DNA of 64,000 nucleotides from Promethearchaeota archaeon (GCA_048937405.1 JBHLNF010000002.1:128001-192000); one strand, 5' to 3'. Shown: positions 3,913 through 31,583, counted from the stretch's first letter. The notes: generated from the letters alone by a model not told the origin. Numbers and translations: made by a program.

Positions 3913-4009
3913 AAAAAATAAAACACTGTATATTATTTTTAATATTCAATTTTCTTTTATAATAACATTTAAACGATATTAAAATCTTCTTTTTTCTAAG
4001 ATTTTTAAT

Positions 4010-4330: not shown

Positions 4331-4641
4331 TTTTTTAAATAAATTTTTTTTATAATTTCTACTGTGCAAGACCAGTATAAAAACTTTCTTCTATAAGAAA
4401 ATGAGTATTTTATTATTTTAATTATTTTCTAAGTATTGTAGGATGCAAGTATGGTCTATTATATTTGTTGCACCATGATAGAATGATAATAGTTTAAAAT
4501 ATGCATATTTTATTTTGTCATAGAATAAGAGAAGGAATCCCTAAAGTATGTTTTATTAAGGTTTTTATTTTTAAATTTCTCAGATCATAAAATATGAGAA
4601 GAAGGTCTCTACTCCTCAAATTTAAAAATCATTCCTACTTG

Positions 4642-4926
4642 CTATATAAAAATTCTTCCAAAATCTTGAGTTTGTCCATTATTTTCTTCAGAACTTTCTT
4701 CTATATATAATTCTCCTTTCTTAGTAGATTCTTCAATTTCTATTATTTTTCCAACTTTCTCAAATATAAAATCAAATTTCTTCCAAAGATCTTTAAAAGT
4801 TCCTAATAAATCAATTAGAATCATTTTAGCGTCCTCTAAAGTAAACTCTTTGCTTAAAAGGATAGATCGAATGTTCTTTTCTATTCCTTCAATAACTTCT
4901 TTAATCTCCGCACTCATTAGAACCAT
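4642..4926 (-). CDS. Provirus hypothetical protein (helical)
   Basis: Last ORF of the co-oriented late operon; tight spacing. Confidence 0.55.
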   Translation of the reverse strand: MVLMSAEIKEVIEGIEKNIRSILLSKEFTLEDAKMILIDLLGTFKDLWKKFDFIFEKVGKIIEIEESTKKGELYIEESSEENNGQTQDFGRIFI

Positions 4927-4946
4927 CTTCAGTTTCTCTTCGAATA

Positions 4947-5129
4947 CTATACAAAAATTTCAAATTGTTCAAAAGACTTAATTTTACCAATAGTAATTTC
5001 ACTTTTTATTTCTGTCGATTCATAAACATCAATTCTTTGTTTTGAATTATCTGCTGTGATGTATATATAAGGACCAAATGATTTTATTAAACTATCTTCG
5101 TTATTAGATTTATAAATATTTTTTTCCAT
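4947..5129 (-). CDS. Provirus hypothetical protein
   Basis: Co-oriented, 17-20 bp gaps to neighbours. Confidence 0.5.
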   Translation of the reverse strand: MEKNIYKSNNEDSLIKSFGPYIYITADNSKQRIDVYESTEIKSEITIGKIKSFEQFEIFV

Positions 5130-5146
5130 AATTTCATCTCTTTAAA

Positions 5147-5272
5147 TTAATCTTTTATTACTCTAATAATATTAACCCAATTAAATATTTCAATTACACA
5201 GATAATAGATATGATTAATGCTGCTATTGAAAACAAACTAAACAATATGGTAAAAAACTTTATCTTATTCAC
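5147..5272 (-). CDS. 41-aa single-TM membrane protein, holin-like candidate (not in ORF track)
   Basis: GTG start after SD-like GAGGTGA; MNKIKFFTILFSLFSIAALIISIICVIEIFNWVNIIRVIKD; fills the gap after the tail gene. Confidence 0.65.
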   Translation of the reverse strand: MNKIKFFTILFSLFSIAALIISIICVIEIFNWVNIIRVIKD

Positions 5273-5289
5273 TCTTTATCACCTCTTCA

Positions 5290-8200
5290 TTATAAACTTT
5301 TCTTAACATAATATTCTACTTGAATACCAACCAAATAAATATCATTCGCCCCATCATCATTAACCCATCCTACTAAATAAGAAGCATCGGTCAATATATC
5401 TGCAGCAACCCATGTATAAGATGCATCAATATAGGTATCGGCAACTGCAAATGTAATATCCATATTTAGTCCAGCTTCAATGTTATTTGCAGGGGTAGTG
5501 CCATCACATTTATATTCGACTAATGAAAATTGTCCATCAATGGTAAGGTCATCTCCTTCACTAAAAATAAGCGTTATGGTAATGTTCTTTGAACTATCTA
5601 CAGTATTAGAAATATAAAAGTTTCCCCATGCTGATTGAGTTGGCTCTAAATACCATCCTTTTGTAGATATAGTCCCCGTATTGGAATATAAAGGAACATT
5701 AACAACCACTAAATCTGTTAAAGGGTCTACAATATAATTAGACCCATCCGAATTATCTGAAATATCTGTATTATTACCATTAAATACATTAGTAACACAC
5801 ATGTTATATTGGGCATCCGCATTTAATTCAAGTCCAATGTCATTCGATAATAACTGATTTCCAATAATAGTATTATAGTCACCGTCATCAATCCTTATGC
5901 CCTCAGATGTATTTGAATAACATTTGTTTGAAGTTACAAAATTAAAATCTGAATCTGCAGCAATTAAAATTCCAATCCCATTATCATCCAATCTATTATC
6001 TGAAACGGTATTATAACATGCATCATAAAGATATATCCCCGTTGTAGCGTTATCATGACAATCATTATCAAAAATAGAATGGTTATCATGTGCAGAAATT
6101 ATGCCGCTATGCCCATTATGATGTAGATGATTCTCATAAACCTTACATTTACCGCCTTGAGGATAAACCCCAATATATAGATAGGATATTTCACAGTTTC
6201 TTACAATACAATCAGAAAGTCCTATAATACCATAGCCTTTTTTATCAGCATCTCCAGTTATTGTGAGATTCTCGCAAATGACTAAATTATCATTCGCTTC
6301 ATTAATATCTATTATTATTTTTGCTTGAGTTGAAACATCTGAAGCATCAATAGAAAAATTCATTAATATACAAGATGCAGCATTATCAATATCAAATGCA
6401 CTTCTATCACCCGCACAGTCTATTGTCGCACCAATACCATCGATAATTATATTAACATTAGCATTATCTATTGTTAAAGTTGCAGTTAAAGTATGAGTTC
6501 CAGGTAAGAGTTTTATTACACCTCTTCCTATACTTTCTACTTCATCAATAGCAACTTGAATATCATCACCAGGATTCACAGCAATTACATTATCTCCCAT
6601 TGAATTCTTTAGGGTATCCCACATAGAAGTTGTATTATTCCAAACAATCCAATCCCCTAATTCATACCATCGTGCGGGTGTATTATCTGCTCCGCCTGGT
6701 GCTGCTTTATATCCGTCATCATCACATATATAAAAATCCCCATTCTCAGGTGCTGCGGGATACGCATCACCCGGTGTATATGTTCCCTTATAAACTACGG
6801 CTTCTGCTAATGTTACAACAACATCTCGAACTGCATTTTTACTTGGTGCAATTGTAGTGACACCATTCCAGTTATCAGCATCATAGACAGCATCACTAAC
6901 TTTCGCATCTGCATAAGCCTTAATTGATTGTTGAGTTGCTAATTTGGTTGCACTATTAGAGCCCATATTATCTTCATCTAAACAATCAGATATATTTGGA
7001 GTTGATGGAAAATCAATATTATGTTCATTAAGGTCTAAATCGCCCCCTAACTGTGGCGTCACATCTTCCACTAAATTCTCAAATACTTCATGGTGAGCAT
7101 TATCATCTGCAGTATGAGTTGCAATTAGCGCATCAATCGCAGCATCAATCGCTTCACCATCTACAATCTCGGCATCTATGATGTCTCTTACACCTGTTCC
7201 AAACCCAACAATATCACCATAGGTTATAATGGCGCCTGCTGCCCAAGGTGTAGAGACCAACCTATCAGAAAGATTTTTCCTGGCAACACTATTCACTCTT
7301 CTAATTGCCATACCAAGCTTCTCATCCCATTCTGTTTCTCCTAATCCAGCATGAATAATTGTCTGAATACCATCAATACCACGTGGTTTTCTTTCAATCA
7401 TCCGAATTGGATATGTTGCTTTCGCTATGGTTGGTCGTGCAAAAGTAATATCGACAGTTGTACCTAATTGGATTGCGGTCCGCGTACCATTCAGCGACAA
7501 GCGCATTGAGGGTCTTTTATCTTTATAATAGTCTAACTGAGTGTTGGCAACCTCTTGAGCATCAGATTTAGTCATAATAGTATTATCAATTATAATTTTG
7601 GTAATGTTTCCCGAAACTGTGAAGTCTTCAGCTGGTGAAAAAATATTATAGGCTGCATTTCCCCATACTTCTACTCTTTTAACTTGATTGCATGCGTCCT
7701 CTAAATCCCAGTCCCAATCAGCATCACTTACCGTAAGGTCTACACCAGAATCTACAAAATCATCAGGCTTGACAATTTTAATTCGCCTCGTTGCATGGTC
7801 TTCGCACCAAATTGCACCCTCAACCTGACATACAGAGGTAAGTGCGGATATACAATATAAACCCTTAAAATGTCGTGCGATATACTTAGAAAGGGTACTT
7901 ACAATATTGAGAGGCACACCTGCTTGACTTGCAATATCTGAAAGAATGGTATTAGTATTTTGTCCAATTTTAAAAGAATCATTTACAGCTACACCTGTAT
8001 TGGTCCAGGTAACACCTGCACAGGTAAGAGAATTAGCAGCAGAATCGGTTATAGATTCCATAATAGGTGATATATTCAGAGTATTATGATAAACGGTAAC
8101 CTTGATATAATCACATTCCATATCGATTTCAGCATAACCACCCATTGTAATATATTGACCTCTTGTATAGATACGCAATCCTTTTAATTCTGTGAAATTA

Positions 8201-9117
8201 CCTCCTGCAGTATTGAAATACTTAGCCATTTCCGTAGCACTTTCTTCAATAGTAATAAGAGGTGAATCTGTCCAAATCTTAGTAGGTCCTTTTCCCGAAT
8301 ACTCAAGAGTTTTTAAAGTGATCCAATCCGCATCTTTTTTTATTTGTAAATAACCTCTAAGATACCAAAAAGAATAGGGATCACAATCTGGAATATCAAA
8401 TCCATATTGATAATCAATTTCAATTTTTTGAATACTATGCGTGTCTGGAATTACTGTTCCATCAATCGTAAATGATGTAGAAGTCGCATATGTTTGATTA
8501 TTATCACCATCAACAGTAACAACTAATTCATCATCATCATCTTTGGTAATAGTGGAAGCAGCATTACCCGCAGAAGAGTCTTCCCCTGAAATATCCACAG
8601 CAGATGCATCCCATTCCTTAGAGATAGTACTCGTAGTATTATCCACTATGAGTAAGCCTTTATCTTGCTGTCCACTTACCCATTGGTCATCATCCCAATC
8701 AAAATCCTCATCTCCTCCCGCATCATATTCGTTGTTTTCATTCTCATCATAATAAACGTGCAATTCTGCATCTGCATCAACTTGTTGGACTTTTCCTTCA
8801 GCCAGGATATAATTACTATTAAATGATGCCCATTCTAATCTTACGCCAAATCCTACCAAATGAAGCATAAGATACTTAGCTGTAAAATTTTTTTTGGCTA
8901 AATAACCATCAAAAATAACATTTTCATCATCATCCTCAACTCTCATAGGACAGAAATCTCTTGAATACCATGTACTATATAAGGCTCCTTCAAAATCTCT
9001 TAGTTTAACATCACATAATCCATACATATTATTTCGGGTAGTAATAGTGGGATACTCTACAACATCCCCAACTTCTGTCCAAGAATCATCTTCATCAGCA
9101 TCATGATAAAGTTTCAT
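5290..9117 (-). CDS. Large tail protein: baseplate-hub-like N-terminal half, fibre motifs and right-handed beta-helix (tailspike-like)
   Basis: Hub-like VKRVEVWG...IDNTIMTKSDAQEVA...IQLGTTVDI; fibre-type TPQLGGDLDLN and ATQQSIKAY; DIQVAIDE...IKLLPGTH followed by N..S.N..GI parallel beta-helix repeats. Confidence 0.75.
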   Translation of the reverse strand: MKLYHDADEDDSWTEVGDVVEYPTITTRNNMYGLCDVKLRDFEGALYSTWYSRDFCPMRVEDDDENVIFDGYLAKKNFTAKYLMLHLVGFGVRLEWASFNSNYILAEGKVQQVDADAELHVYYDENENNEYDAGGDEDFDWDDDQWVSGQQDKGLLIVDNTTSTISKEWDASAVDISGEDSSAGNAASTITKDDDDELVVTVDGDNNQTYATSTSFTIDGTVIPDTHSIQKIEIDYQYGFDIPDCDPYSFWYLRGYLQIKKDADWITLKTLEYSGKGPTKIWTDSPLITIEESATEMAKYFNTAGGNFTELKGLRIYTRGQYITMGGYAEIDMECDYIKVTVYHNTLNISPIMESITDSAANSLTCAGVTWTNTGVAVNDSFKIGQNTNTILSDIASQAGVPLNIVSTLSKYIARHFKGLYCISALTSVCQVEGAIWCEDHATRRIKIVKPDDFVDSGVDLTVSDADWDWDLEDACNQVKRVEVWGNAAYNIFSPAEDFTVSGNITKIIIDNTIMTKSDAQEVANTQLDYYKDKRPSMRLSLNGTRTAIQLGTTVDITFARPTIAKATYPIRMIERKPRGIDGIQTIIHAGLGETEWDEKLGMAIRRVNSVARKNLSDRLVSTPWAAGAIITYGDIVGFGTGVRDIIDAEIVDGEAIDAAIDALIATHTADDNAHHEVFENLVEDVTPQLGGDLDLNEHNIDFPSTPNISDCLDEDNMGSNSATKLATQQSIKAYADAKVSDAVYDADNWNGVTTIAPSKNAVRDVVVTLAEAVVYKGTYTPGDAYPAAPENGDFYICDDDGYKAAPGGADNTPARWYELGDWIVWNNTTSMWDTLKNSMGDNVIAVNPGDDIQVAIDEVESIGRGVIKLLPGTHTLTATLTIDNANVNIIIDGIGATIDCAGDRSAFDIDNAASCILMNFSIDASDVSTQAKIIIDINEANDNLVICENLTITGDADKKGYGIIGLSDCIVRNCEISYLYIGVYPQGGKCKVYENHLHHNGHSGIISAHDNHSIFDNDCHDNATTGIYLYDACYNTVSDNRLDDNGIGILIAADSDFNFVTSNKCYSNTSEGIRIDDGDYNTIIGNQLLSNDIGLELNADAQYNMCVTNVFNGNNTDISDNSDGSNYIVDPLTDLVVVNVPLYSNTGTISTKGWYLEPTQSAWGNFYISNTVDSSKNITITLIFSEGDDLTIDGQFSLVEYKCDGTTPANNIEAGLNMDITFAVADTYIDASYTWVAADILTDASYLVGWVNDDGANDIYLVGIQVEYYVKKSL

Positions 9118-9121
9118 AAAA

Positions 9122-9592
9122 TCACCATAAAGATGGGATATAACTTATTATTGTTTGAATATTATGTAATCCTTCATTTGCACTTGCTAATTGTTGAGCT
9201 ATTTTTGATTGTTCTAATTGAGCTGCTATTAACGCTGTAGTTGCAATTCCAATATTTAAAAATCCTATAGCCGCTTGTATTTGCATCCCAGGTGTTACAG
9301 CTTCTGCTGTTAATATTGGTGTTAATAAAGAGATTGCAGAAATTCCTGCACTTATTAATGATGTAAAGAAGTAGCTTACAGAAGTTCCAGTAGCTCTTAC
9401 AAAAGCTGCTCCTGCTAAATAAGAAGACCTTGCCATACTTAAAACTTTCTGATAAGCATAAGTAGTTTTTTCCTCTACTTCTTGAACAGTTTTATTAGTA
9501 GCAGTTTCTACTTGCTGTCTTTTATTTTCTACTTCGTCTAATTTTTGTTTTGCTACAGTAGTATCTACATCAAGATTAACCTTCTCAGACAT
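9122..9592 (-). CDS. Putative minimal tape-measure / ejection protein
   Basis: Position between tail tube and hub; N-terminal coiled coil and Ala/Gly/Ile-rich hydrophobic helices. Confidence 0.45.
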   Translation of the reverse strand: MSEKVNLDVDTTVAKQKLDEVENKRQQVETATNKTVQEVEEKTTYAYQKVLSMARSSYLAGAAFVRATGTSVSYFFTSLISAGISAISLLTPILTAEAVTPGMQIQAAIGFLNIGIATTALIAAQLEQSKIAQQLASANEGLHNIQTIISYIPSLW

Positions 9593-9600
9593 AATATCAC

Positions 9601-10833
9601 CTAAGAAACGTGTTTATAATGAGTAGACCAATTTGTTTGATCTTCTATAGTAAAATCTACATCTATTGATTCTGCTTTTAAGAAAATTCGAGCATTATAA
9701 AAACCTTCAAATTGATGACCTGTTTCTTGAACATCTACAACATAGCAATTATAAAATTCATGAGTTACATAGTAATTCTCATCTGGTTTATATACAGTAA
9801 TATTAATTTGACGAGCTTCTCTATCTATATAATCTGTCCAAATTTTCTTCCGTTCTAATACTGCTTCTAATGTTAATTGTATAGTTTTATGCTTGTAGAG
9901 ATATACTGTTCCGTATTTGGAGTTATTATCCAAAACTACTTTATATTCTTGCTCTTGATACCATTGAGCCTTCCAACATTCTAGAAAGTGAATATTTTGA
10001 TCTGCTACATCCCAGTAAACATCAGGTTTTCCATTATAACAATTTTCTGCATTATAACCTGGGTTTGAAGGATCTGTTGTTAATCTTGGTCTTTCTTTAT
10101 CAAATAGCTTTATTGTATCTCCTGCTAAATTTGCATTAGGAGTAGAATCTAATGTTAATACTGGCGGATCTGATGCATCAGAATCCTCTACATTAAAAGT
10201 CTCGTCTTCATTATCTCCTCCACTTACAAATACTAACCAACCATTATAATAATCTACTGCTCTCTGTGGCTCATCTGTTAAAGTAATATCATTTCCAACA
10301 ACACTTGCTACAGTATCGTCAGCTTTCCATTGTCCTCTATCATCTTCTAACCTGCCAAAAATCCATTCACTCTCAACTAAGAAAGGAGCACCTTCCATAG
10401 CTGTACATCCTAATTTAATCATATAACAATCTACAGCTTGAGCTAATCTATCAACACTACCGTCATTTAACTCATCTCTAATCGTAATAGGTAAAGGTAA
10501 ACCTGTATCTAATACTTCTGCATTATGAATATTAGCTCCTCCGCCATCTTTAGTAACTTGTTTTAAAAACCAACAAATATACTGAGGAGTTATAGGTAGA
10601 AAATTGATTTTAAAAGGTTTATATTTTGGTCTAATAGGGGTTATATTAGATTCTCTCGAATCATAAGAATAATATTCTTCTACGTCATTTACTATTGATG
10701 GTAGAGTCCAATCACCACAAGACTCATCAAATTCTCCAAAAAAATAAGTTGTATCATCGGCATCATCAATAGCTTCTACACCTACACCCGATTGATATGC
10801 CCATACTAATCTACTTGATTTATTTCCTGTCAT
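9601..10833 (-). CDS. Putative major tail (tube) protein with inserted acidic beta domain
   Basis: Synteny after the terminator-like gene; beta-rich; insert DYYNGWLVFVSGG...TLDSTP..AGDTIKL. Confidence 0.5.
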   Translation of the reverse strand: MTGNKSSRLVWAYQSGVGVEAIDDADDTTYFFGEFDESCGDWTLPSIVNDVEEYYSYDSRESNITPIRPKYKPFKINFLPITPQYICWFLKQVTKDGGGANIHNAEVLDTGLPLPITIRDELNDGSVDRLAQAVDCYMIKLGCTAMEGAPFLVESEWIFGRLEDDRGQWKADDTVASVVGNDITLTDEPQRAVDYYNGWLVFVSGGDNEDETFNVEDSDASDPPVLTLDSTPNANLAGDTIKLFDKERPRLTTDPSNPGYNAENCYNGKPDVYWDVADQNIHFLECWKAQWYQEQEYKVVLDNNSKYGTVYLYKHKTIQLTLEAVLERKKIWTDYIDREARQINITVYKPDENYYVTHEFYNCYVVDVQETGHQFEGFYNARIFLKAESIDVDFTIEDQTNWSTHYKHVS

Positions 10834-10877
10834 TTTTTTACCTTTTTAGTTAATTATTTAATTTTCAATTTAATCTT

Positions 10878-11297
10878 TTAACTTGTTGACCAAGTTATAT
10901 CTAAAAATATATCTTCATACCATCTTCCGTCATCCTGTTCATAAGCTTTATTACTATATGCTAATTTAATATAATTCATAACACTAGGACGAGTATAATC
11001 AGTTATAGTTTCTCTTCTATTAAATTTTAATATCCCTTCTAAGATATTATTAAAAGCACTCATTAAATTAGCTTCATTAGTTTCTGATAATTTTATTTTA
11101 TATCTTTTAACATAACGATAATTATCTGCTGATAATACTTCTCCTGGTTCTACAAGCATTCTATGTGTTTTTCCTGCCCCATATTTATCACTATAAATAC
11201 TTTTTGATTCAGAAATATGCTTAACTGTTGCTGATGTGTGTACTTTCCCTAAGAAAGTTCTAATATAATCTAATTCACTATCATCTGCCATTTTCAC
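10878..11297 (-). CDS. Putative tail terminator / neck protein
   Basis: Size and position in head-tail junction block. Confidence 0.4.
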   Translation of the reverse strand: MKMADDSELDYIRTFLGKVHTSATVKHISESKSIYSDKYGAGKTHRMLVEPGEVLSADNYRYVKRYKIKLSETNEANLMSAFNNILEGILKFNRRETITDYTRPSVMNYIKLAYSNKAYEQDDGRWYEDIFLDITWSTS

Positions 11298-11756
11298 TCA
11301 CTTTCTTCCAAAATAATTTTCTTTTTCTCTCGCTAATACAGTCATCATTCTTTCCTTTGCAAATTCTACCATTTTATCAAAGAAATACCCTACTGCATTA
11401 GGATCATCTAATATTTTCCTTCCTCTTCTTTCACCACTATGCCGTACTCTCATTGTTGGCATATTATTTACATATATAGCATAATCCACGTCTGTTGCTA
11501 ATACTAATCTTAATATCTCATTTTGTATATATGAAGTATGTAACTTCTGTAATAAATCATTTCTTAGATTTCCTGTATCTTTTGGTACTTTTTGTTTAAT
11601 CCATTGTTCTAATAAGAAAATCATCTCTTTTAAAACAGCTCGTAGAAATTTCTGTATGTTTTGTTTAACTTGTTCATATGTAAATTTATTTCCACGTACT
11701 ATATAGCTGATTTCTGCCTTTGATAATTCTCCTATAACTGTTTGTTTTAAACTCAT
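11298..11756 (-). CDS. HK97 gp10-like / minor capsid (tail completion) protein
   Basis: VPKDTGNLRND ... VDYAIYVN ... YFF signature. Confidence 0.7.
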   Translation of the reverse strand: MSLKQTVIGELSKAEISYIVRGNKFTYEQVKQNIQKFLRAVLKEMIFLLEQWIKQKVPKDTGNLRNDLLQKLHTSYIQNEILRLVLATDVDYAIYVNNMPTMRVRHSGERRGRKILDDPNAVGYFFDKMVEFAKERMMTVLAREKENYFGRK

Positions 11757-12124
11757 GTGTAATCTGGGTACATTTCAAAACTTTGGATAGTAAAATTACT
11801 ATTTTTCTTTAAAATGGTTTTAATAATATAATCCATAAATTCTTCGACAGATTTCTTAATCTCTATAGTATGTCCGTCTTTAATCATTTGAAGAATCATC
11901 ATTCTTTCCGCAAGTAATGTAGTTGCTGTAATAATACGATCTGGAATAGTTCCACTAAAACTCTTTCCTTCAATCGAGTTTATTATTCTTTCTGCCATAC
12001 TAATTTTTGCTACTACTTGTGCTTCTGAATACGACGGGATCAAATTTGCATAAGTTTTACAGGCATAATCTTCTAATTGGTCTCCTGTAATATATTCATA
12101 TTCGCTTGTTTCTGTATAAGCCAT
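11753..12124 (-). CDS. Putative head-tail adaptor protein
   Basis: YIT..QL, AERIINS, IPDRIITATTLLA pattern; directly after capsid gene. Confidence 0.6.
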   Translation of the reverse strand: MAYTETSEYEYITGDQLEDYACKTYANLIPSYSEAQVVAKISMAERIINSIEGKSFSGTIPDRIITATTLLAERMMILQMIKDGHTIEIKKSVEEFMDYIIKTILKKNSNFTIQSFEMYPDYT

Positions 12125-12160
12125 GTTTTTTTAACCTTTATATAATTAAATAAAAAATAT

Positions 12161-12176
12161 AGGAGTAGAAACTCCT
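12161..12176 (-). terminator. Hairpin followed by T-rich tract downstream of capsid gene
   Basis: AGGAGT-agaa-ACTCCT (plus strand); minus strand continues ATATTTTTTATTT. Confidence 0.45.
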
Positions 12177-12208
12177 TTTAATACTTCAAAATTCGGATTT
12201 AAATTACT

Positions 12209-13156: not shown

Positions 13157-13161
13157 GATAA

Positions 13162-13593
13162 TTAACCTCTATCTATTCTGGCTCTGCATACTGAATCACC
13201 GTTAGGAACTCTATAAACTATTCTTGCAAAAGTTTGACCTGTTGCACTACCAGCAGACCAAGGTGCAATTCCTGCATTTGCTGGTTTATCGTAGATAGGT
13301 TCACTTATCTCTTTATCTTCTCCTGGATCATCACAGAACATATTTACATAACCTTCTGTGATTATGTTTCCTTGGTAGCCACTTGAAATAGCTGTGTCAA
13401 GATCTACATTGTAGTGTTTATTTAAAACACCTGCTGCTCTATAAGAGGTTGATGCTTTTCTGATATTTTTAGAACTATCAATATGAACTAAAGATCCTGC
13501 TTTGATATCTTGTATAAGAGTACCAAATAGAGGAGCTTTATTATCTCCTACTTCAATACTATTTCCTATATCACTTATTTCGTCATTTGCCAT
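13162..13593 (-). CDS. Capsid decoration/cement protein
   Basis: 143 aa, IKAGSLV...AAGV...IITEGYV pattern, immediately upstream of capsid gene. Confidence 0.6.
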   Translation of the reverse strand: MANDEISDIGNSIEVGDNKAPLFGTLIQDIKAGSLVHIDSSKNIRKASTSYRAAGVLNKHYNVDLDTAISSGYQGNIITEGYVNMFCDDPGEDKEISEPIYDKPANAGIAPWSAGSATGQTFARIVYRVPNGDSVCRARIDRG

Positions 13594-13647
13594 ATGCTAA
13601 ACCTTTTTATTTTTAATTTACAGGTATCCTCACTTAAGAGTCCTTTG

Positions 13648-14421
13648 TTAACCTGTTTTATGTTGTTTTACAAACTTCCATTCTGTGAAAACTTTTGAAG
13701 TTTCTTTATCAGTAGGAAGATCATGCTTCATTTTATCTTGAAAACCTAACTTGATTTTCTGCTTCTCTTTTTCTTCTTCGTCTCCTTCTTCTTCTGGTTT
13801 AGGTTCAGGCTTATCCTTAGCCTTAGACAATTCTTCTAGTTGTTTTTTTAAGAGATTAATCTCTTCTAAGAGAATTTTACTTGTAATTTCTTGTTCCTCG
13901 TTATTCTCTTCTGAGTTATCCTCTTTATTATTTTCTTCTGATTCTTGAGGATCTTCTGGCTCCTCATTATTATCTGTATTTTGTCCATCTACTATATCAG
14001 GACCAGCAGATGGCTCATCTCCTCTATCTCGTTTTGTAATATTACACACCTTTAAAGGACATTTTTGATCAAAATTACCAACAGCTATATGGTTGATTCC
14101 TATAATTTTATTATCTTGAATTTCATATTCTATTGAAACATTAAAATCTCCATCTTTATTACTATGAAGTTTAATTCCTTCATCTAAATCTTCTTGATTC
14201 CATCCTACATACAAAAGCTTGTTTCTTTTATCTAAATCCCAGTATTTAATAGAACCTACTTGTTCTCTTACATCACCATGACTTCTCTTAATAGGAATTG
14301 GTGTATTTCCTCTACTTTTTAGAGCTACTTCAATTTCTTCCCATTTATCATAGAAATCATCTGGTTTATAATCTCCTAGAGCAGCAACACCACTATAATC
14401 GAACTTTCTACTTTTTATCAT
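13648..14421 (-). CDS. Prohead maturation protease fused to acidic scaffold (DUF2213-like)
   Basis: SHGD..QVG, VSIEY, INHIAVG..C in N-terminal half; acidic linker and coiled-coil C-terminus. Confidence 0.65.
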   Translation of the reverse strand: MIKSRKFDYSGVAALGDYKPDDFYDKWEEIEVALKSRGNTPIPIKRSHGDVREQVGSIKYWDLDKRNKLLYVGWNQEDLDEGIKLHSNKDGDFNVSIEYEIQDNKIIGINHIAVGNFDQKCPLKVCNITKRDRGDEPSAGPDIVDGQNTDNNEEPEDPQESEENNKEDNSEENNEEQEITSKILLEEINLLKKQLEELSKAKDKPEPKPEEEGDEEEKEKQKIKLGFQDKMKHDLPTDKETSKVFTEWKFVKQHKTG

Positions 14422-14614
14422 ATTTTTCCTCTAATCTTTTCATATAAGGTATTAAATCCTTATTACAATAGGGGCATACAGTCACGTTTTTTGAATCTTC
14501 AATAAATTTCTTTCTTGTTGGAAGAAAATCAAAATCTCCACTCCATAACAATTCTGCTAACTTTTTACAGCAAAAGAAAGCTTGAAAATTCTGATAGTTT
14601 TCTTCTTCACTCAT
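14408..14614 (-). CDS. Small putative Zn-binding protein
   Basis: CC...CPYC; overlaps neighbours on both sides. Confidence 0.6.
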   Translation of the reverse strand: MSEEENYQNFQAFFCCKKLAELLWSGDFDFLPTRKKFIEDSKNVTVCPYCNKDLIPYMKRLEEKYDKK

Positions 14615-14739
14615 TTTCCATTCTTGTGTTTTTTTACTAAATATGCTCTATAGGCTCGTTCTGCATCTCCTTGAGTTTTATAGATACATTGTCCTTCGCC
14701 AATTCTCCACTTTCCATTACTGCATTTCTTCACTGGCAT
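14611..14739 (-). CDS. 42-aa basic protein (not in ORF track)
   Basis: MPVKKCSNGKWRIGEGQCIYKTQGDAERAYRAYLVKKHKNGK; ATG directly after portal stop, ATGA overlap with next gene. Confidence 0.75.
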   Translation of the reverse strand: MPVKKCSNGKWRIGEGQCIYKTQGDAERAYRAYLVKKHKNGK

Positions 14740-15942
14740 TTAATCATATTTCTCTACATAGTTCTTTTCTTTTTTAAGATAATCAGCATCTTTTTCTTCA
14801 GGTTCTTCTACAGGTTCTAATTCTTGCTTTTCTTCATTTACAGCTTTATTATAGTCTTCTGAATCTACTAAATTTCCTCCATCATCAAATACTATCTCTT
14901 TAACACTTTCATTCAAAGCTTCACCATCTTCCTGCTTTAAAAGTAGTTTTCTAATAAATGGTATATATTCTTGAAAGATTTGTTTTAATGTAGTCCATAT
15001 TGCTATTCTATCTTCTTTTGCTGCAGATTGAGCTCCTTTAGGATCTCCTATAAACCATCTCACTGGAAATCCAGATGATCCAGAAATTATCTTCATTAAC
15101 TCTTCTAAATCTGCTGTCCAGTTTACTTTATTACCAGAACCTTCCCAAGTAATCGTAGGTGCTTGTCCTGTCATAGTAGAACTTTTCAGCAATAAAACAC
15201 TTCTGGTATTTGTCTTCTTAATAGCTGTAATTAAATTTGACTGCTGATCACTGTACTCGTTTGGATCAAGAGATAAAATCATCATCCCATTTCCTATTCT
15301 TGCATCATATTCTGCCATAGCTGAAACTATCTCATTATATCTCACAGAAGAATCCCATACAGCTTTAATTGGAGCAACTCCTTGTCTATTTAATTTAGAC
15401 TTCCCTACTGAGAAGTGAATCACATCTTCTGGAAATAAATCATAATCACTTACAGCTTCACTTTGTTCTATATTCTCTCCTTCTTCTAACTCAGGTTTGA
15501 CCTTATATTTCTCAATCTTTAATTTCTTGAATTTAATCTTCTGAATATCTGTAGAATCATGAACAAGCCAATCTCTGTCTTCTAAAACATCATCTTTTAG
15601 TGGTTCTACAACACAGTACCCATGTGTTCTAGTAGCTTGAATAACATCATTTAAGAGATTATTATAAGAGAGTTTTTCCCACTGCTCTTTTAAGTCTTCC
15701 ATTTCATTTCCTACTTTATCTAAGAAAATAGGAGTTCTTTCTGTGATTAAATTAGCTACCCTTTGAACAAGAGCATTAATAATAGGATCGTTTTCTACTC
15801 TAATTTCCCTATGTTTTGGATTACTCCATTTTTTAGCTTTTAGCACTTCTAATTTATCTGCATAAATTGAGGAGTGAATCCATTCATTTGCTCTTTGTAC
15901 TTTTCCTACAACCCATTCCTTTGCTCTTCGTAATACTCCCAT
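14740..15942 (-). CDS. Portal protein (DUF1073-like)
   Basis: 400 aa after terminase; RTHGYC, VIHF...RQGVAP, ISGSSGFPVRWFIG.PKG motifs. Confidence 0.8.
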   Translation of the reverse strand: MGVLRRAKEWVVGKVQRANEWIHSSIYADKLEVLKAKKWSNPKHREIRVENDPIINALVQRVANLITERTPIFLDKVGNEMEDLKEQWEKLSYNNLLNDVIQATRTHGYCVVEPLKDDVLEDRDWLVHDSTDIQKIKFKKLKIEKYKVKPELEEGENIEQSEAVSDYDLFPEDVIHFSVGKSKLNRQGVAPIKAVWDSSVRYNEIVSAMAEYDARIGNGMMILSLDPNEYSDQQSNLITAIKKTNTRSVLLLKSSTMTGQAPTITWEGSGNKVNWTADLEELMKIISGSSGFPVRWFIGDPKGAQSAAKEDRIAIWTTLKQIFQEYIPFIRKLLLKQEDGEALNESVKEIVFDDGGNLVDSEDYNKAVNEEKQELEPVEEPEEKDADYLKKEKNYVEKYD

Positions 15943-15943
15943 A

Positions 15944-16138
15944 TTATTTTACCATTAGCAATTGTTTTAAATTATCTATATATTTTCCATATCCTTCCTT
16001 CCTCAGAAATGCTTCAATAGATCCATAGTTCCTTTCAATTTCTTGTACTACTACTCTTCTTAACGTTCCTTCATAACCAATCTGGCAAATTAAGTAGGTA
16101 TCTAAATCTGCATAACCAATATCTATATCATTAAACAT
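15944..16138 (-). CDS. Provirus hypothetical protein (probable start MFNDID at 16138)
   Basis: ATG overlaps the end of the KTSC gene; the longer ORF call overlaps KTSC by 128 bp. Confidence 0.5.
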   Translation of the reverse strand: MFNDIDIGYADLDTYLICQIGYEGTLRRVVVQEIERNYGSIEAFLRKEGYGKYIDNLKQLLMVK

Positions 16139-16499
16139 AGTTCCATCTATATCCTCCTTTCCTAATATTGTAGTAGAAAAACGTACCTTTAGAATGAGCA
16201 TAATAAAACTCTTCAAAAATACTAAACGGTACATCATAGTATTTTGCCATTTTTCCACTAAGAAACTGTACTTTTAATTCTCCTGCTTCTATCGTCTTTC
16301 CTTTTATATATTCAAATCCTGCTATATTAGTAGAGCTTACTGGCATCATAGGATAATCCTTCCATACAAGTCTCCCTACTCTCATAGGACCTATTGCAGG
16401 AGGTTGCTCTTTTCTTGTAGTTGGTGTTAGTAATCTGCTAGGTACAAACCTGCCACTTTCATCTCTCATGTAGGGCTTTGGTCTTCTTCTTCTTACCAT
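16131..16499 (-). CDS. KTSC-domain protein with Arg-rich N-terminus
   Basis: PVSSTNIAGFEY...LKVQF.SG...YYDVP...F..AHSKGTFF..NIR is the KTSC pattern. Confidence 0.85.
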   Translation of the reverse strand: MVRRRRPKPYMRDESGRFVPSRLLTPTTRKEQPPAIGPMRVGRLVWKDYPMMPVSSTNIAGFEYIKGKTIEAGELKVQFLSGKMAKYYDVPFSIFEEFYYAHSKGTFFYYNIRKGGYRWNYV

Positions 16500-16502
16500 A
16501 TT

Positions 16503-17837
16503 TTATCCTCCATAATTCCAATTACTATACATTTCCCAAAGATACTTCCTAAAGTAGTAATACACTCCATGCATAAGAGAGTCTACATAATCATCATCTT
16601 TCTTATCTCCGCAGTAATGTAATAACTGTTGTTTTAAAGTAGGATTTTTCACTATAAGCCTATTCTCATCCAGTACATATCTTAATCCTTCTATATACCA
16701 TTCTTTCTGGTTTCCAAAGAACGAGAATTTAGTACTGTAATTACTTTTCTTCATTTTTGAATTTACAACACTTGCTATCGTCTGCGATCCTTCTAAGATA
16801 AACAGTGGATGATATTTCTGCTGAAACTCCCTACATTTAACTAATATCTCTTCATAGGTAGCATTTTGTTTTCCCCACGATTCAAGCTCGTAAATAATAT
16901 TATTCTTAATTGCAAGAACAAACATCGTGCATTCATGTCCCCATCCCCAATCAATAGGACATACAATCTCTCCGTAATTTCCTATCTCATTATAATCAAC
17001 AAATGCTTCTTCGATTTTCTTTGCTTTAAAGTATGCTCCTTCTTCTTCTACCCATTCCATCAGCACTTCCTGTCTCCACATCCTCTCTGTCATTCCTGCT
17101 TTTATCTGCTTCCATGTATCTTCTGAAACCCATATAGCATCCTCTTTTCTTAGAGTAAATTTACTGCATTGTAAATCTTTATCAAACCAAAATGTATGGA
17201 ATCTACTACCTGCTTTTGCAGTTCCTGTAATCCATATATGCATTTCTCTTCCTGTTGCCAACATAGGAAAGATTTTACTCCATACTTCTGGCTCTACTTC
17301 CTGTGCTTCGTCTATAATAACTATATCCGCTTCGTACGTTCCTGTATCTGCTATTGTATTACTATGAGCCATCACAGTAGTGCCATTTTTCAATGTAGTA
17401 TGTGTTTTAGCATCTTGTTTACCCAACAAATCAAGTTTATACTCTAAATCAATTTCTCGTATTGAACTAATTACATAAGAAGCAGTTTCTTTCTTAGAAG
17501 ATAAAATGTGGACTCTGAGTTTCCTTCTTGTTCCTAATAAAATAATTCCTAAAGCGTCAAGGTAGGTTTTACCTGTTTTTCTACATCCAAAAACCATTGT
17601 CATTCCTGGTTGTAGAAAACTTTGTAAAATTTCCTTCTGTTTTGGAACTAACTTTTTAGTTATCTTTTTATAATTAACTGCAAATTTCTTATCTTCAGTA
17701 GTGAGGTAGGGTTCTACATATAGTCTCGCATACAAAGGAAAAATATTAATATAGCTTCTTGCCTTTGCAGGATCTTTACTCGCTTCTGAAATCATTTTTT
17801 CTAAAATTTTCTTATAGTTAAATTCTTCTTCGTTCAA
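16503..17837 (-). CDS. terL: Terminase large subunit
   Basis: Walker A GCRKTGKT, Walker B IVIIDEAQ, coupling motif TGT, nuclease PIDWG and DDYVDS. Confidence 0.92.
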   Translation of the reverse strand: MNEEEFNYKKILEKMISEASKDPAKARSYINIFPLYARLYVEPYLTTEDKKFAVNYKKITKKLVPKQKEILQSFLQPGMTMVFGCRKTGKTYLDALGIILLGTRRKLRVHILSSKKETASYVISSIREIDLEYKLDLLGKQDAKTHTTLKNGTTVMAHSNTIADTGTYEADIVIIDEAQEVEPEVWSKIFPMLATGREMHIWITGTAKAGSRFHTFWFDKDLQCSKFTLRKEDAIWVSEDTWKQIKAGMTERMWRQEVLMEWVEEEGAYFKAKKIEEAFVDYNEIGNYGEIVCPIDWGWGHECTMFVLAIKNNIIYELESWGKQNATYEEILVKCREFQQKYHPLFILEGSQTIASVVNSKMKKSNYSTKFSFFGNQKEWYIEGLRYVLDENRLIVKNPTLKQQLLHYCGDKKDDDYVDSLMHGVYYYFRKYLWEMYSNWNYGG

Positions 17838-18030
17838 TGGGTAGGGGTGTCTCTTCGTTTTTTATACAGAGTTCACTTCCTTTATTCTCATATTATAATT
17901 AAGGGAGGGATAAGCTATCCCTACCCTTTATGCATGAAGGAAGTGAAGAATATATGCGGAAGCAACAGAGCAGTTATCCTGACCTTTGAGGTTTGATCTG
18001 ATTGTTACTTCCTTTCTATATCCTATAGGA
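17838..18030 (-). ncRNA. Candidate structured RNA leader (or DNA packaging-site structure) upstream of terL
   Basis: Nested inverted repeats 17872-17882/17937-17947, 17901-17912/17916-17928, 17958-17967/18003-18012; extra complementarity 17839-17846/17919-17926. Confidence 0.55.
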
Positions 18031-18059
18031 GTTTTAACATTTGTAATACGATTTATTAT

Positions 18060-18089
18060 TTTGATAATTATCAAACTAATACATTTAAA
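18060..18089 (-). promoter_or_regulatory. Putative late promoter (TTTAAA at 18084-18089) with a perfect 16-bp palindrome over the expected start site
   Basis: TTTGATAATTATCAAA at 18060-18075 is a perfect palindrome. Confidence 0.5.
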
Positions 18090-18114
18090 TTTCAAAAATT
18101 AGACAATTTTGTAG

Positions 18115-18363
18115 TCATAGCAGAAAAAACAGCGATTTTCAGTTACCTTTTTTTAGTAGAAAAAAAATAAGTATATATATATATATTATATTTTATAAGT
18201 TTTTATTTATATTTTATAATATAATAGTATATTTTATATATTTTATATACCTAGATCGTAAGAAAAAATATATATATAAAAATAGAAATAAATATATAAA
18301 TATATATACATTTTTCTCCATATAAAAAAGGTTGGAAAAATTTCCATGTTTTTTCTGCTATGA
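18115..18363. repeat. 17-bp perfect inverted repeat flanking a very A/T-rich core; candidate replication origin
   Basis: TCATAGCAGAAAAAACA (18115-18131) / TGTTTTTTCTGCTATGA (18347-18363); imperfect inward extension ACCTTTTTT...AGAAAAA...GTATATATA on both arms. Confidence 0.75.
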
Positions 18364-18591
18364 GAATTTATTCGTTCTTCTATCACGCACAACTTTTATA
18401 ATTTTAACAAAAATGTATTATTTTGAAAATTAGAAAACCATCTAATATAATACTTACTCGTCCACATCCTTAGCCAAAATCTAATTTTAATAGTTATCTA
18501 ATCTTTAAACCAATACAATTTTCAAATATTTATAAGTAAGTGGAATTATAGTAGGATGAGAAAAAACTATTTTAAAAAATAATATAAAAAA

Positions 18592-19146
18592 GTGAAAATT
18601 AAAATGACTAAACTATTATTTGAACTCAACGATGTAATTCATAGAAAATTTAAGACCTTCTGCATTAATAAAGGAACAACCATGAAAAAGGAATTAAACA
18701 AATATATCGAGATTCTCCTTAAGGAAAATGACTCTGATCTAAATACAGAAGATCTTACAAAAGCTATTACTGAAAAAGAACGTAAAGAAAAATGGGAATT
18801 AGCTTTAAAACAATATAAAAAGAAAAAAGAATCAAAGAAGGAAAAAAAGAAATATAAACAAAAACAAAGACGTATACAATATGAAGAAGCAGAAAAACTT
18901 TATCATCAGAATAAAATCGTTAAATTACAAGAAAAGAGAGAAGATCTTATTAGAGAATTAGTTAGAAAGAATCCTTTTCTCGATCCCTGGGGGTATGAAT
19001 TTGATAAAGAAATTATACCAGAAATCGAAGAATTTAATAGTAGATATACTCTGAGAGGTCTAATAGCTTTACCTGATCAGACTTTAATAAACATTTGGTA
19101 TAAATTCCAACAAGAAGAAGTAAATAAATTAGAAGGTGATTTTTAA
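18592..19146 (+). CDS. Ribbon-helix-helix (ParG-like) domain protein with basic coiled coil
   Basis: KLLFELNDVIHRKFKTFC...TTMKKELNKYIE RHH pattern. Confidence 0.6.
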   Translation: MKIKMTKLLFELNDVIHRKFKTFCINKGTTMKKELNKYIEILLKENDSDLNTEDLTKAITEKERKEKWELALKQYKKKKESKKEKKKYKQKQRRIQYEEAEKLYHQNKIVKLQEKREDLIRELVRKNPFLDPWGYEFDKEIIPEIEEFNSRYTLRGLIALPDQTLINIWYKFQQEEVNKLEGDF

Positions 19147-19324
19147 AATGTGTACAAAAGAAGAAGCTATGAGAAAACTTGTAGAATTTATGACTCCTGA
19201 AGAATTTACTGAATCTCTTCAGGAGACTGAATCATCTTATAATTATCTTAAAGAAGTATGCTCAGATTTGCAATTACAGTTAAAAATCCTGCGTGAAACT
19301 ATTGCCGAAAAACGAAGCAATTGA
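19136..19324 (+). CDS. Small coiled-coil protein
   Basis: Overlaps neighbours; SD-like AGGTGA before MCTKEE. Confidence 0.55.
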   Translation: MIFKMCTKEEAMRKLVEFMTPEEFTESLQETESSYNYLKEVCSDLQLQLKILRETIAEKRSN

Positions 19325-19760
19325 AAAAACTCTTTACAAATATCGAAAATTAGGAAAACAGCATCCAGATATTCCCAAGTGTGAGTTATGTGGTTGTCTT
19401 CTTAAAAAAGATCGTGAATGGGTTTGTCCTAACTGTGGTTTAGTTCACGACAAAATCTTAAATGGAGGAACTGAACGACCTGGTGATTTATCCTTCCAAT
19501 CTGAAGCAGATTTTTCTAAGTTCATGCGTGAAAGTTTAAACGATCGAGCTATTCATAAGAAGCTTCGAAAAAAAGTCTACTTTGAGGAGTATCACAAGGA
19601 TTATTATCAAGGATTTAAAACCGTTAATTTATACGTAGAAGTTCACGAAAAACTCAAAAAATTCTGCATCAGACATAAAATTAAACAATACGTGCTTATT
19701 TCGCAAGTTTTAGATATAATCCTACCAATTTTAGAAGAAAACGTGAATAAAAATGGTTAA
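19293..19760 (+). CDS. Zn-ribbon plus C-terminal RHH-like protein
   Basis: CELCG...WVCPNCGLV; KTVNLYVEVHEKLKKFC. Confidence 0.65.
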   Translation: MKLLPKNEAIEKTLYKYRKLGKQHPDIPKCELCGCLLKKDREWVCPNCGLVHDKILNGGTERPGDLSFQSEADFSKFMRESLNDRAIHKKLRKKVYFEEYHKDYYQGFKTVNLYVEVHEKLKKFCIRHKIKQYVLISQVLDIILPILEENVNKNG

Positions 19761-19965
19761 TAAGGAGAGATTTTGTACTAGCATTGAACTCAAGGGAGAT
19801 TACGCTGTTTATGTAAGAAAATTGAAAAATATGGGTTTTAATATCTCCAGATTTATACGAGAAGCAATTCAAAACTATGTGAAAATACATTCAAAAAATC
19901 TACAAAAATTAATCATGTTTGCGGATTCTATGAATAAACCTACTAAATTTATAAACGAAGAATAA
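19753..19965 (+). CDS. Ribbon-helix-helix DNA-binding protein
   Basis: TSIEL...NISRFIREAI. Confidence 0.7.
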   Translation: MVNKERFCTSIELKGDYAVYVRKLKNMGFNISRFIREAIQNYVKIHSKNLQKLIMFADSMNKPTKFINEE

Positions 19966-19976
19966 AAAAGAAGAAT

Positions 19977-21152
19977 TTAGTCAGAAGGTTTTATAACTTT
20001 ACCTTCTTTCTTTTGTTTTTCAATATATTTTTCAAACTTATCTTTATCGATCATAGGAAAAAAAGTATTAACCATCTCTTTCATTAAACTAAACTCTTTC
20101 TTCATGTTACTTATATCTCCTCTTAATTCGAAGTTTTCTTGTTTTAATTTCTTGACTTCTTCTGAAGTTCTATCGTACACTTCACAGTCAATGCAAATAT
20201 TTGGTTCTATTTTTAACCACTGCTTATAAAACCACTCAATATCGAGCAGGTTTTGATTATAACTTCTGCTTAAATTTGTAGCTTTATGACCTAGTAAATG
20301 CTCTCTAAATTCTGCATCAATTTCCCTTGATCTTCTTACCTGACTTGAGAAATATTTCCTAAACGTGTGAGTTTTAATATTTCCTTCTATACCCATTTCT
20401 TTACAAATTGCTTTTAATCTTCTAAGATAATTATTCTTATTAATCTTATTTCCCATTTTAGTTTCAAAGATAAATCCTCCTACAGATTCTATTAAATTTG
20501 ATAGTTCAGTAGGAAAAAACACATAATTAATTTTAACTCCTTCTTTCATTGTTTTAAAGTTTCTAATAAATGAATGATTTTTATACTTTTCAATCTTATA
20601 TTTAGGAGTACATTCAAGAATATCACTAATTCTAAATCCAGTTAATGCTTGGAATTTTAAGATTAATCTATATTCTGGTCTGTGTAAATTGACAAGAATC
20701 TTTTGAATAGTATTTCTATCCAAGATAATTTCATTAACATTTGAACCTGCAGAAACAGTTTGTAATCCATCACTTAAAGGAGATCCTCTATCAGAGTAAA
20801 AAGATTTAATTCTTGATTGAATCATATTCTTCACAGAACCTTCATTAACTCCATCTCGTAATAAACTGCTTAAATATGTGAGTAACCTTTTATTTCTTTC
20901 GTCAATTTCTTCCTCTAAGAATTCAGTAGGATTTTCACACTCGTAAAATCTACAGTAATCATTCAGAGGTTTTAAATAACCTGTGGTGTTAAATCTTGAA
21001 GGTATTTTTCCACTTCGTGCATATTTCTCTACTTTATGGACTATCCAGAGTTTTACATCATTATTCCTAAAGATTGGATATTTTTTCTCCCATTTCTCAA
21101 TTTTCTTCTGTCCAAATACTTCAGTTAAATTTAAATTTTTTAATTCTATCAT
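19977..21152 (-). CDS. Tyrosine recombinase/integrase
   Basis: TGFRISD (R), KTMK (K), HTFRK (H..R), LLGH, SYN (Y) catalytic set; TTTATAAA about 23 nt upstream suggests a leaderless transcript. Confidence 0.93.
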   Translation of the reverse strand: MIELKNLNLTEVFGQKKIEKWEKKYPIFRNNDVKLWIVHKVEKYARSGKIPSRFNTTGYLKPLNDYCRFYECENPTEFLEEEIDERNKRLLTYLSSLLRDGVNEGSVKNMIQSRIKSFYSDRGSPLSDGLQTVSAGSNVNEIILDRNTIQKILVNLHRPEYRLILKFQALTGFRISDILECTPKYKIEKYKNHSFIRNFKTMKEGVKINYVFFPTELSNLIESVGGFIFETKMGNKINKNNYLRRLKAICKEMGIEGNIKTHTFRKYFSSQVRRSREIDAEFREHLLGHKATNLSRSYNQNLLDIEWFYKQWLKIEPNICIDCEVYDRTSEEVKKLKQENFELRGDISNMKKEFSLMKEMVNTFFPMIDKDKFEKYIEKQKKEGKVIKPSD

Positions 21153-21294
21153 AGGTTACAGAAGGAAGATTTTATTTATAAACTTTATGCTGTGTACGGT
21201 AGATTTTTTATATAAAATCTTTATCATTTTTTTTATTTTTTGTCTCTCTTTACTTTTAATAAACTTTTTAGCCCATATTGAATTTAGTAAAAGA

Positions 21295-31551: not shown

Positions 31552-31583
31552 AAAAAATGAGTTATTAACCAAATAAAACTATA

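Follow-up and report, generated by a model that had tools for sequence, protein, structure and literature searches.

A compact provirus with a verdandivirus-type head module and a tyrosine integrase in the genome of an Asgard archaeon

Introduction

The described viruses closest to the element reported here are the Verdandiviridae. Verdandivirus genomes are described as 19.5–20.6 kb long and without predicted replication or transcription genes, and five of them are complete and circular (Medvedeva et al., 10.1101/2021.07.29.453957). Their tape-measure proteins are short (median 259 amino acids, aa), and their hub carries an adhesin domain. They were called likely lytic, with lysis alternating with lysogeny allowed for some such viruses, and the integrases in Table S5 of that preprint are all in the sheet 'Other', with none annotated in the sheet 'Verdandiviruses'. 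The one cultivated Lokiarchaeial provirus is Fylgjavirus 1 of Ca. Lokiarchaeum ossiferum B36, an active provirus of 16.1 kb (bioRxiv 10.64898/2026.02.13.705702). Here we describe a putative provirus of 16.85 kb in a 64,000-nucleotide stretch of DNA from a Promethearchaeota archaeon (GCA_048937405.1, JBHLNF010000002.1:128001-192000; G000:C28:128001-192000 in our numbering of genomes and contigs), hereafter the window. The assembly is 4.47 Mb in 29 contigs and has a G+C content of 28.9%.

An earlier note on this DNA had proposed that positions 4362–21194 hold a compact, apparently intact tailed provirus of an Asgard-like archaeon. By our analysis, the element does not represent a new type of virus. 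It appears to be a new member of the verdandivirus lineage (Asgard Caudoviricetes), divergent and mosaic, and it looks like the first integrated, integrase-carrying relative of the Verdandiviridae. We put the probability at about three in four that it is a genuine provirus, a small temperate siphovirus-type archaeal virus that looks recently integrated and intact in a Lokiarchaeia-type Asgard host.

Results

Head and packaging genes

Seven consecutive proteins (TerL, a KTSC-domain protein, a small conserved protein, the portal, a 257-aa protein, a 143-aa protein and the HK97-type major capsid protein, MCP) are 44–65% identical to those of contig GR-1629 and three sister contigs, with their order kept. 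GR-1629 (LAZR01001629), which comes from Loki's Castle, is listed gene by gene in the 'Verdandiviruses' sheet of Table S5 of Medvedeva et al. (10.1101/2021.07.29.453957), in which the homologue of our portal is annotated as portal at probability 99.95 and the homologue of our MCP is HK97-like at HHsearch probability 100. One of the MCP homologues, LCGC14_0720430, lies on JGI contig Ga0073582_101629, which has TPR genes at one end and the gene order of GR-1629. Identities to GR-1629 are 55% for TerL, 57% for the portal and 52% for the MCP. The nearest head modules are those of GR-1629 and loci L020, L022 and L024, with ranges of 53–59% (TerL), 57–65% (portal), 48–52% (MCP) and 48–62% (KTSC protein). 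In all, 12 metagenomic MCP homologues were found, 48–57% identical.

The verdandivirus VerdaV5 was located in IMG/VR through a protospacer printed in the preprint supplement (3300009488_000017; 20,002 bp, terminal repeats, rated 100% complete). Five of its genes match and are collinear with the element: TerL (43% identity, E 5e-105), the KTSC protein (40%), the portal (46%, E 7e-100), the protein upstream of the MCP (30%) and the MCP (31–32%; BLASTP 31%, E 7.6e-43). The MCP family profile matches the VerdaV5 MCP at 5.7e-66. The KTSC gene is kept between TerL and portal in verdandiviruses. Of the 22 open reading frames (ORFs) in the element, 5 are shared with VerdaV5 and 7–9 with GR-1629 and L024. 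In an unrooted tree of 10 TerL sequences, the element falls in an open fork with VerdaV5, L022 and the GR-1629/L020/L024 group; the same fork also contains the TerL pair from two proviruses described below (G097 and G115) on a long, well-supported branch, and only L049 and L051 fall outside it. The argument for verdandivirus affinity is carried by the identities and not by the tree. A TerL tblastn search of a phage collection found only remote bacterial phages (best 2e-8), and the MCP and portal found none there; the collection contains no verdandiviruses, so these nulls are uninformative about them.

The remaining head proteins could be assigned with less precision. The 257-aa protein has no PDB or Pfam match, and its conserved N-terminal domain and acidic coiled-coil tail suggest a scaffold, possibly a protease-scaffold fusion. 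The 143-aa protein is a candidate capsid-stabilising or decoration protein, a role that the preprint's text gives to the gene before the MCP. PDB searches with profiles of these two proteins and the MCP gave nothing significant, and MCP matches to PF09950 and PF04454 were below cut-off. The weak matches to the encapsulin family Linocin_M18 (PF04454) came from the MCP and three of its homologues; the VerdaV2 MCP has been singled out as carrying only encapsulin-type Pfam domains (2026 paper, PMC13669383).

Like the Verdandiviridae, the element has a small genome, no recognisable replication genes, a predicted tail of siphovirus type in which a short tape measure is paired with a large hub, a Lokiarchaeia-type host and a marine-sediment origin. 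It differs in having a tyrosine integrase and being integrated, in its length (16.85 kb vs 19.5–20.6 kb), in a tape-measure-like protein of 156 aa rather than 259 aa, and in its early and regulatory genes. The incomplete contigs of the GR-1629 group are also distinct: they encode a 346-aa tube protein, two small chaperone-sized ORFs, a tape measure of 445–636 aa and, ahead of the hub, a separate protein of ~150 aa; a helicase-like gene is present in several, and there is no integrase in the assembled part. Two of these loci, L020 and L024, share the 155-aa Zn-ribbon gene with the element, and L024 also shares the 70-aa gene for a ribbon-helix-helix (RHH)-like protein. Membership in the Fylgjaviridae or Skuldviridae was ruled out, as the MCP is HK97-type and not double jelly-roll and the packaging enzyme is a TerL and not an FtsK-type ATPase. 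Fylgjavirus 1 resembles the element as a ~16-kb Lokiarchaeon provirus in intergenic DNA and not a tRNA gene, with a tyrosine recombinase and no recognisable replication protein, but it is tailless, has a double jelly-roll capsid (Varidnaviria) and has no genes in common with it. A literature check found both Fylgjavirus 1 and the NMV viruses to be unrelated.

Boundaries and insertion site

The ends of the element were set by comparing three sites: attL, attR and an empty site in the closest relative, G058, which was found by DNA searches of the genus with both flanks. Contig C485 of G058 joins window position ~4350 to 21203. It matches window 1612–3299 at 90% identity, continues for 22 bases, and then matches window 21203–21923 at 96%; the 22 bases and the start of the right-hand match correspond to the DNA on the left (window ~4319–4350) and right of the insertion. 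Element-specific DNA is thereby placed at window 4355–21202. These ends lie within 8 bases of those in the earlier note, whose size estimate of ~17 kb agrees with the 16.85 kb measured between the att cores. The core ATTTTTTAT(A) is present in a single copy in G058 and at both ends of the element in this genome (attL, ATTTTTTTTATA; attR, ATTTTTTATA), with two extra T in attL. Because the core is short and AT-rich, the direct repeat alone would be weak evidence. An imperfect inverted repeat (8 of 10) around the core in the reconstructed attP was given no weight because its arms are 14–16 bp apart.

The insertion is in intergenic DNA. attL is 13 nt upstream of the likely ATG of a host gene for a 119-aa protein, and the window contains no tRNA genes, so integration was promoter-proximal and not in a tRNA gene. 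An Rfam scan of 3900–21500 found no family. Host genes on the left flank encode CdhD, an ACS-like ligase, a nitroreductase and the 119-aa protein, and the right flank encodes a DUF998 membrane protein. In most members of the genus, the 119-aa gene directly follows CdhD (window 1686–4369 compared with G008, G009, G006 and G058). In this genome, the ligase and nitroreductase genes lie between the two, and G058 has yet another order, which places the provirus at the margin of a variable region. The flank protein encoded at 1686–3080 was tried as a synteny marker and was useless because the ACS-like family is highly paralogous.

Tail genes and exchange with other proviruses

Downstream from 12124, BLAST finds no similarity between the neck-to-hub genes and VerdaV5 or GR-1629. 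Their relatives are in a different set of elements. A provirus in G115, another genus of the same archaeal family (contig C78, ~785–16737, L046), is ~16 kb, tailed and integrase-bearing, and it has the same plan and size. Its neck, tube, 156-aa protein and hub are homologous (31–45%), its three neck proteins are 38–41% identical, its integrase is 50% identical, and gene order and orientation are as in this element. Its head and packaging genes, in contrast, belong to another lineage: TerL has no significant similarity, and the MCP reaches only an hhalign probability of 68% over 74 columns. It also carries an N6/N4 DNA methylase and is flanked by an AIR-synthase-related host gene. With a head like that of verdandiviruses and a tail and integrase like those of another provirus pool, the element is a mosaic. 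What is new relative to the genomes in the preprint is that the element has an integrase and is integrated, that its genome is smaller and that its tail module comes from another pool.

The triple of tube, ~155-aa protein and hub occurs in G115:C78, L048 (83–85% identical), L049, L051 and L052, a Loki's Castle contig. The 410-aa tube protein was modelled with AlphaFold 2 (AF2; pLDDT 88.6, pTM 0.86), and Foldseek matched the model to 8xan_A (SH-Ab15497, 2.7e-11), 8ed0_A (TMq 0.59) and the tubes of T5, DT57C and P74-26. The tubes of T5 (pb6), DT57C and P74-26 are like the 410-aa protein in its predicted fold of two fused tube domains, which, if correct, implies trimeric rings with pseudo-sixfold symmetry. 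They differ in that the 410-aa protein is 7–10% identical to them, has an extra inserted domain of ~80 aa and comes from an archaeal host. Among 1.84 billion representatives, 55 relatives were found, most of them ~330 aa long and without residues ~165–247.

Homologues of the 156-aa protein are all 104–184 aa long, and the protein is always between tube and hub (L046, L048, L049, L051 and L052). From its sequence and position, it is probably a miniature tape measure. The rule quoted in 10.1101/2021.07.29.453957 is about 0.15 nm of tail per tape-measure residue, by which 156 aa would give a tail of roughly 23 nm (about 20–25 nm). The N-terminal ~600 aa of the 1275-aa protein are predicted to form the baseplate hub: the AF2 model of residues 1–660 (pLDDT 72.7) matched lambda gpJ (8k35_A, 4.6e-10), T5 pb3 and Mu gp44 in Foldseek. 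The beta-helix further along (~940–1130) is a predicted receptor-binding or depolymerase domain. There are 34 hub homologues, and the N-terminus is homologous to that of the hub in L052. Comparison with L048 gave dN/dS values of 0.14–0.16 for the tube, 156-aa protein and hub genes (0.16 for the 156-aa protein), which indicates purifying selection across lineages. Protein lengths also fit those of homologues (TerL 444 vs 442–449, MCP 315 vs 304–315, tube 410 vs 410, and 156 vs 152–156).

Another small provirus, in G097 (L028/L029, G097:C6:~26000–42200), has its own integrase at 28% identity. The portal shares 40% identity with that of this element; the MCP is 30% identical to the one here and 37% identical to that of VerdaV5. 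Its TerL is of another lineage, and its neck genes are followed by only two ORFs (288 and 229 aa).

Three small ORFs end the late gene train. The 41-aa product, with its single predicted membrane span, is a holin-like candidate. A 203-bp stretch (4952–5154) over the 60-aa ORF is 100% identical to G000:C1:12607-12809 (L045) in the same genome, which suggests that the provirus and a host defence island exchanged DNA very recently; the 60-aa ORF may have an anti-defence or addiction role. The copy on C1 lies between a type I restriction-modification operon (HsdM/S/R) and genes for an SDH-type protease, an RNase H-like protein and a NERD-UvrD helicase. An NCBIfam scan of ten small proteins gave no match.

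Gene integrity, regulation and functions not recognised

The late genes form one minus-strand run from 17837 to 4642 that is almost gapless and leads from TerL to the hub and the three small ORFs (Table 1). There are no frameshifts or internal stops in the gene train, and all 22 ORFs are open, as expected from the complete, uninterrupted morphogenesis operon claimed in the earlier note, all the genes of which were found. The divergent regulators it listed correspond to four small plus-strand genes (18592–19965) opposite the late train, including RHH-like and Zn-ribbon proteins. Of the full catalytic set that it gave for the integrase, the residues R174, H262-x-x-R265, H289 and Y298 were located; these are invariant with the G115 and G069 homologues (48–51% identical). 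The 184-aa protein, by its N-terminal domain, is a candidate repressor. The divergent control region is a candidate site for promoters and operators, an origin or a pac site, and the arms of its inverted repeat enclose an almost pure A/T core.

Searches of Pfam, PHROGs and NCBIfam found no match for a small terminase (TerS), polymerase, primase, helicase or lysin, the same five functions reported missing earlier. L020, L022 and L024 have a gene, divergent from TerL, for a helicase-like protein of 481–531 aa that matches DUF5906 or, weakly, AAA_lid_8 (L020:1024-2568, L022:106-1551 and L024:1071-2666). In L020 and L024, this gene (514–531 aa) is beside homologues of the 155-aa and 70-aa genes. 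Its presence contrasts with the preprint's account of verdandiviruses without replication genes.

Table 1. Features of the element, in order along the window (strand. = none assigned; basis as found in searches or by position)
Feature	Position	Strand	Basis and remarks
attL core, ATTTTTTTTATA	4343..4354	.	compared with attR and the G058:C485 empty site
94-aa ORF, last of the late train	4642..4926	-	no family match
60-aa ORF	4947..5129	-	
41-aa hydrophobic ORF, one predicted membrane span	5147..5272	-	just after the hub gene
Hub and beta-helix fusion, 1275 aa	5290..9117	-	PF13229 1e-21; NosD 2.9e-19
156-aa protein, coiled coil then hydrophobic Ala/Gly-rich segments	9122..9592	-	tape-measure position
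Major tail-tube protein (predicted), 410 aa, two fused tube domains, ~80-aa inserted domain	9601..10833	-	AF2 and Foldseek
139-aa neck or tail-terminator candidate	10878..11297	-	position; 40% identical in G115; no family match
152-aa HK97 gp10-like neck or tail-completion protein	11298..11756	-	PF04883 1.4e-5; phrog_5 1.2e-4
123-aa head-tail adaptor candidate	11753..12124	-	position; 38% identical homologue in G115 provirus
HK97-type MCP, verdandivirus family, 315 aa	12209..13156	-	phrog_264 2.9e-6
143-aa protein just upstream of MCP	13162..13593	-	52–57% identical to GR-1629 and L024, 30% to VerdaV5
257-aa protein, conserved N-terminal domain and acidic coiled-coil tail	13648..14421	-	sequence; 42–47% identity to relatives
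68-aa ORF	14408..14614	-	
Portal, 400 aa	14740..15942	-	weak PF06381 match
Small conserved ORF, listed 104 aa, real start probably later (~65 aa)	15944..16258	-	kept in L016, L020, L024
KTSC-domain protein, 122 aa	16131..16499	-	PF13619 2.9e-12
TerL, T4-type, 444 aa, Walker A GCRKTGKT	16503..17837	-	phrog_2 1.9e-28
AT-rich divergent control region, about 770 bp	17838..18603	.	17-bp perfect inverted repeat 18115-18131 / 18347-18363
184-aa protein, N-terminal RHH-like domain, ATG at 18604	18592..19146	+	ParG 6.4e-4, 20.3 bits vs cut-off 21.4
62-aa ORF	19136..19324	+	
155-aa Zn-ribbon protein (CxxC...CxxC)	19293..19760	+	weak PF07282; homologues L020 (38%), L024 (27%)
70-aa RHH-like protein	19753..19965	+	34% identical to L024; sub-threshold CcdA, NikA, RHH_3
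Tyrosine integrase, 391 aa	19977..21152	-	PF00589 1.5e-13; phrog_1 3.9e-17
attR core, ATTTTTTATA	21203..21212	.	compared with attL and the empty site

Host and distribution

The host, called Asgard-like in the earlier note, is by its gene content an Asgard archaeon: it has five actin-family genes of eukaryote type (best 441 bits vs PF00022) and an ESCRT-II (Vps25-like) match above cut-off, a family found in 0 of 14 control genomes. There is no 16S rRNA gene in the assembly. The low G+C content, CODH/ACS genes and Loki's Castle origin of the virus relatives fit the class Lokiarchaeia.

TerL relatives were absent from the 24 further genomes of the genus examined for them, and the MCP profile matched none of the 53 other species genomes of the genus. 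In the order, 2 of 153 species genomes have MCP-profile matches, this genome and G097, which belongs to another genus. No second virus with TerL or MCP similarity was found in the host assembly, and a pattern scan of the genome contigs with the MCP alignment gave no match.

Occurrence in sequencing runs

The sequence is present in five sediment or metagenome runs from two studies, in all of them as contigs, and no RNA runs were listed. Junctions and depth were checked in the assembled contigs of four runs. Contigs of runs X1 and X2, possibly the source samples, bridge both junctions and show the integrated form. In X1, the left flank is deeper than the provirus (~50 vs ~30), and some contigs, from the same runs and from other sediment runs, agree with the window as far as 3990–4048, 4406, 4426 and 21226 and diverge there. 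The loose ends and deeper flank suggest that strains co-occur or that variant elements lie at or close to this site.

Outside the element, two short adjoining minus-strand ORFs (86 and 69 aa; window 22104–22604) are beside a 1578-aa ORF (22905–27641) without a Pfam match. A stretch of ~270 bp around 22647–22918 has copies in many of the genomes of this genus as well as on contig C25; a small mobile sequence or a gene end that is repeated may account for it.

Discussion

The integrated contigs, the empty site and the open reading frames support a small temperate virus. The insertion looks recent, as the sister species lacks it. In the life cycle that we propose, the tyrosine integrase would recombine attP with an AT-rich attB, and RHH-type proteins of the plus-strand operon would repress the single late operon of ~12.8 kb from the 770-bp AT-rich divergent control region. 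The excised circle would depend on the host replisome for all of its copying, with the inverted repeat and AT core as the probable starting point; host copying is proposed because the element has no replication gene. TerL would package the DNA into a small capsid, expected to measure about 45–50 nm, and for a genome of 17 kb a capsid of about T=4 is expected from capsid size relative to genome length. A tail of roughly 20–25 nm would be built on the mini tape measure, and the beta-helix domain would bind or degrade a surface glycan.

Several observations weigh against a genuine, intact provirus. No TerS or lysin, and no distal-tail protein or tail chaperones, could be recognised among the genes of the element, and the regulators were assigned from sub-threshold RHH matches. 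The contig that carries the empty site is a short piece of a fragmented metagenome-assembled genome, and its left flank is rearranged, with window 3300–4321 missing from C485. There was no attP or attB joint listed among the contigs of the four runs, which as contigs cannot show absence, and no excess of provirus depth over the flanks. A simple array finder detected no CRISPR array in the host assembly, and no spacer against the element was found. Five short near-perfect matches (27–32 nt) in relatives were inspected, and none was in a repeat array; most such matches are in the AT-rich control region and are probably compositional. The helicase-like gene present in several of the head-module relatives is missing, and the element might therefore be replication-defective.

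This last point is the basis of the strongest alternative, a cryptic provirus that was acquired recently and has intact frames but no longer replicates itself or lyses its host, possibly through loss of a helicase-type gene. Besides the 481–531-aa protein of L020, L022 and L024, the lack of a recognised lysis gene or TerS and the lack of a free or circular form among the contigs speak for it. Verdandiviruses, however, with complete circular genomes known for five of them, are predicted to encode no replication proteins, and the lack of such a gene may therefore be nothing unusual. Every one of the 22 ORFs is open, the motifs of the integrase are preserved, the tail genes are under purifying selection, and the sister species lacks the recent insertion. 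We consider a cryptic provirus unlikely, although it is the most probable of the alternatives.

Far less probable is a helper-dependent, satellite-like or 'mini' virus that has its own virion genes and takes replication or lysis from a co-resident virus or plasmid. The missing replication and lysis functions, the exchange of modules with other elements (the G115 tail and integrase) and the identical 203-bp stretch at another locus of the same genome would fit such a lifestyle. Known satellites, however, are without structural genes and not without replication genes, while this element has a full head and tail, and the assembly holds no second virus with TerL or MCP similarity. A domesticated cluster for gene-transfer-agent (GTA)-like particles can practically be dismissed: the small size (~17 kb), the short tape measure and large hub as in RcGTA and the lack of a TerS recall one, but the element has att repeats, regulators and an intact integrase, the genome is the size that such a capsid would package, and the lack of MCP matches in the 53 other genus genomes searched and the empty locus in the nearest relative rule out a GTA-like element conserved at the locus.

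A temperate virus of the verdandivirus lineage is thus the reading that we prefer, and two outcomes that the earlier note had named as damaging to its proposal did not arise. The best protein identity to anything described is at most 59%, so near-identity to a known virus does not remove the novelty, and the element is not at the same locus in all relatives (empty in the nearest, with MCP matches in 0 of the 53 other genomes of the genus). The note's picture of a minimal temperate virus is supported. Minimality, however, is not peculiar to the element, whose head and packaging module is that of a described lineage; it is a family trait, because verdandiviruses already have genomes of ~20 kb, no replication genes and short tape measures. 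More tentatively, and at somewhat less than even odds, the element may be the first temperate and still-active member of the verdandivirus lineage, with a genome of ~17 kb, an AT-rich promoter-proximal attB, replication by host proteins only from the inverted repeat and AT core, a 156-aa tape measure and a very short tail. The literature searched contains no description of an integrated verdandivirus.

The element reveals no new kind of virus and no link to eukaryotic viruses. Asgard viruses are mostly known from CRISPR-linked metagenomic contigs, and integration ties the verdandivirus lineage to a host directly and without ambiguity. With its defined integrase, attP and attB, the element offers a starting point for an integrative vector in a group that lacks genetic tools, and, if the proposal of an active temperate virus is true, the integrase and att pair would be a possible integrative genetic tool for Asgard archaea. 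The compact tail design, with a duplicated tube, a ~155-aa tape-measure-like protein and a hub fusion, recurs in sediment viruses. Small Lokiarchaeial proviruses swap modules, so that a head of one lineage is joined to a tail and an integrase of another, and, if that proposal holds, this element and those of G115 and G097 would together define one pool of mosaic proviruses of ~16 kb within this archaeal family. The finding suggests that lysogens can occur in the verdandivirus lineage, for which lysis was expected and no integrase had been annotated.

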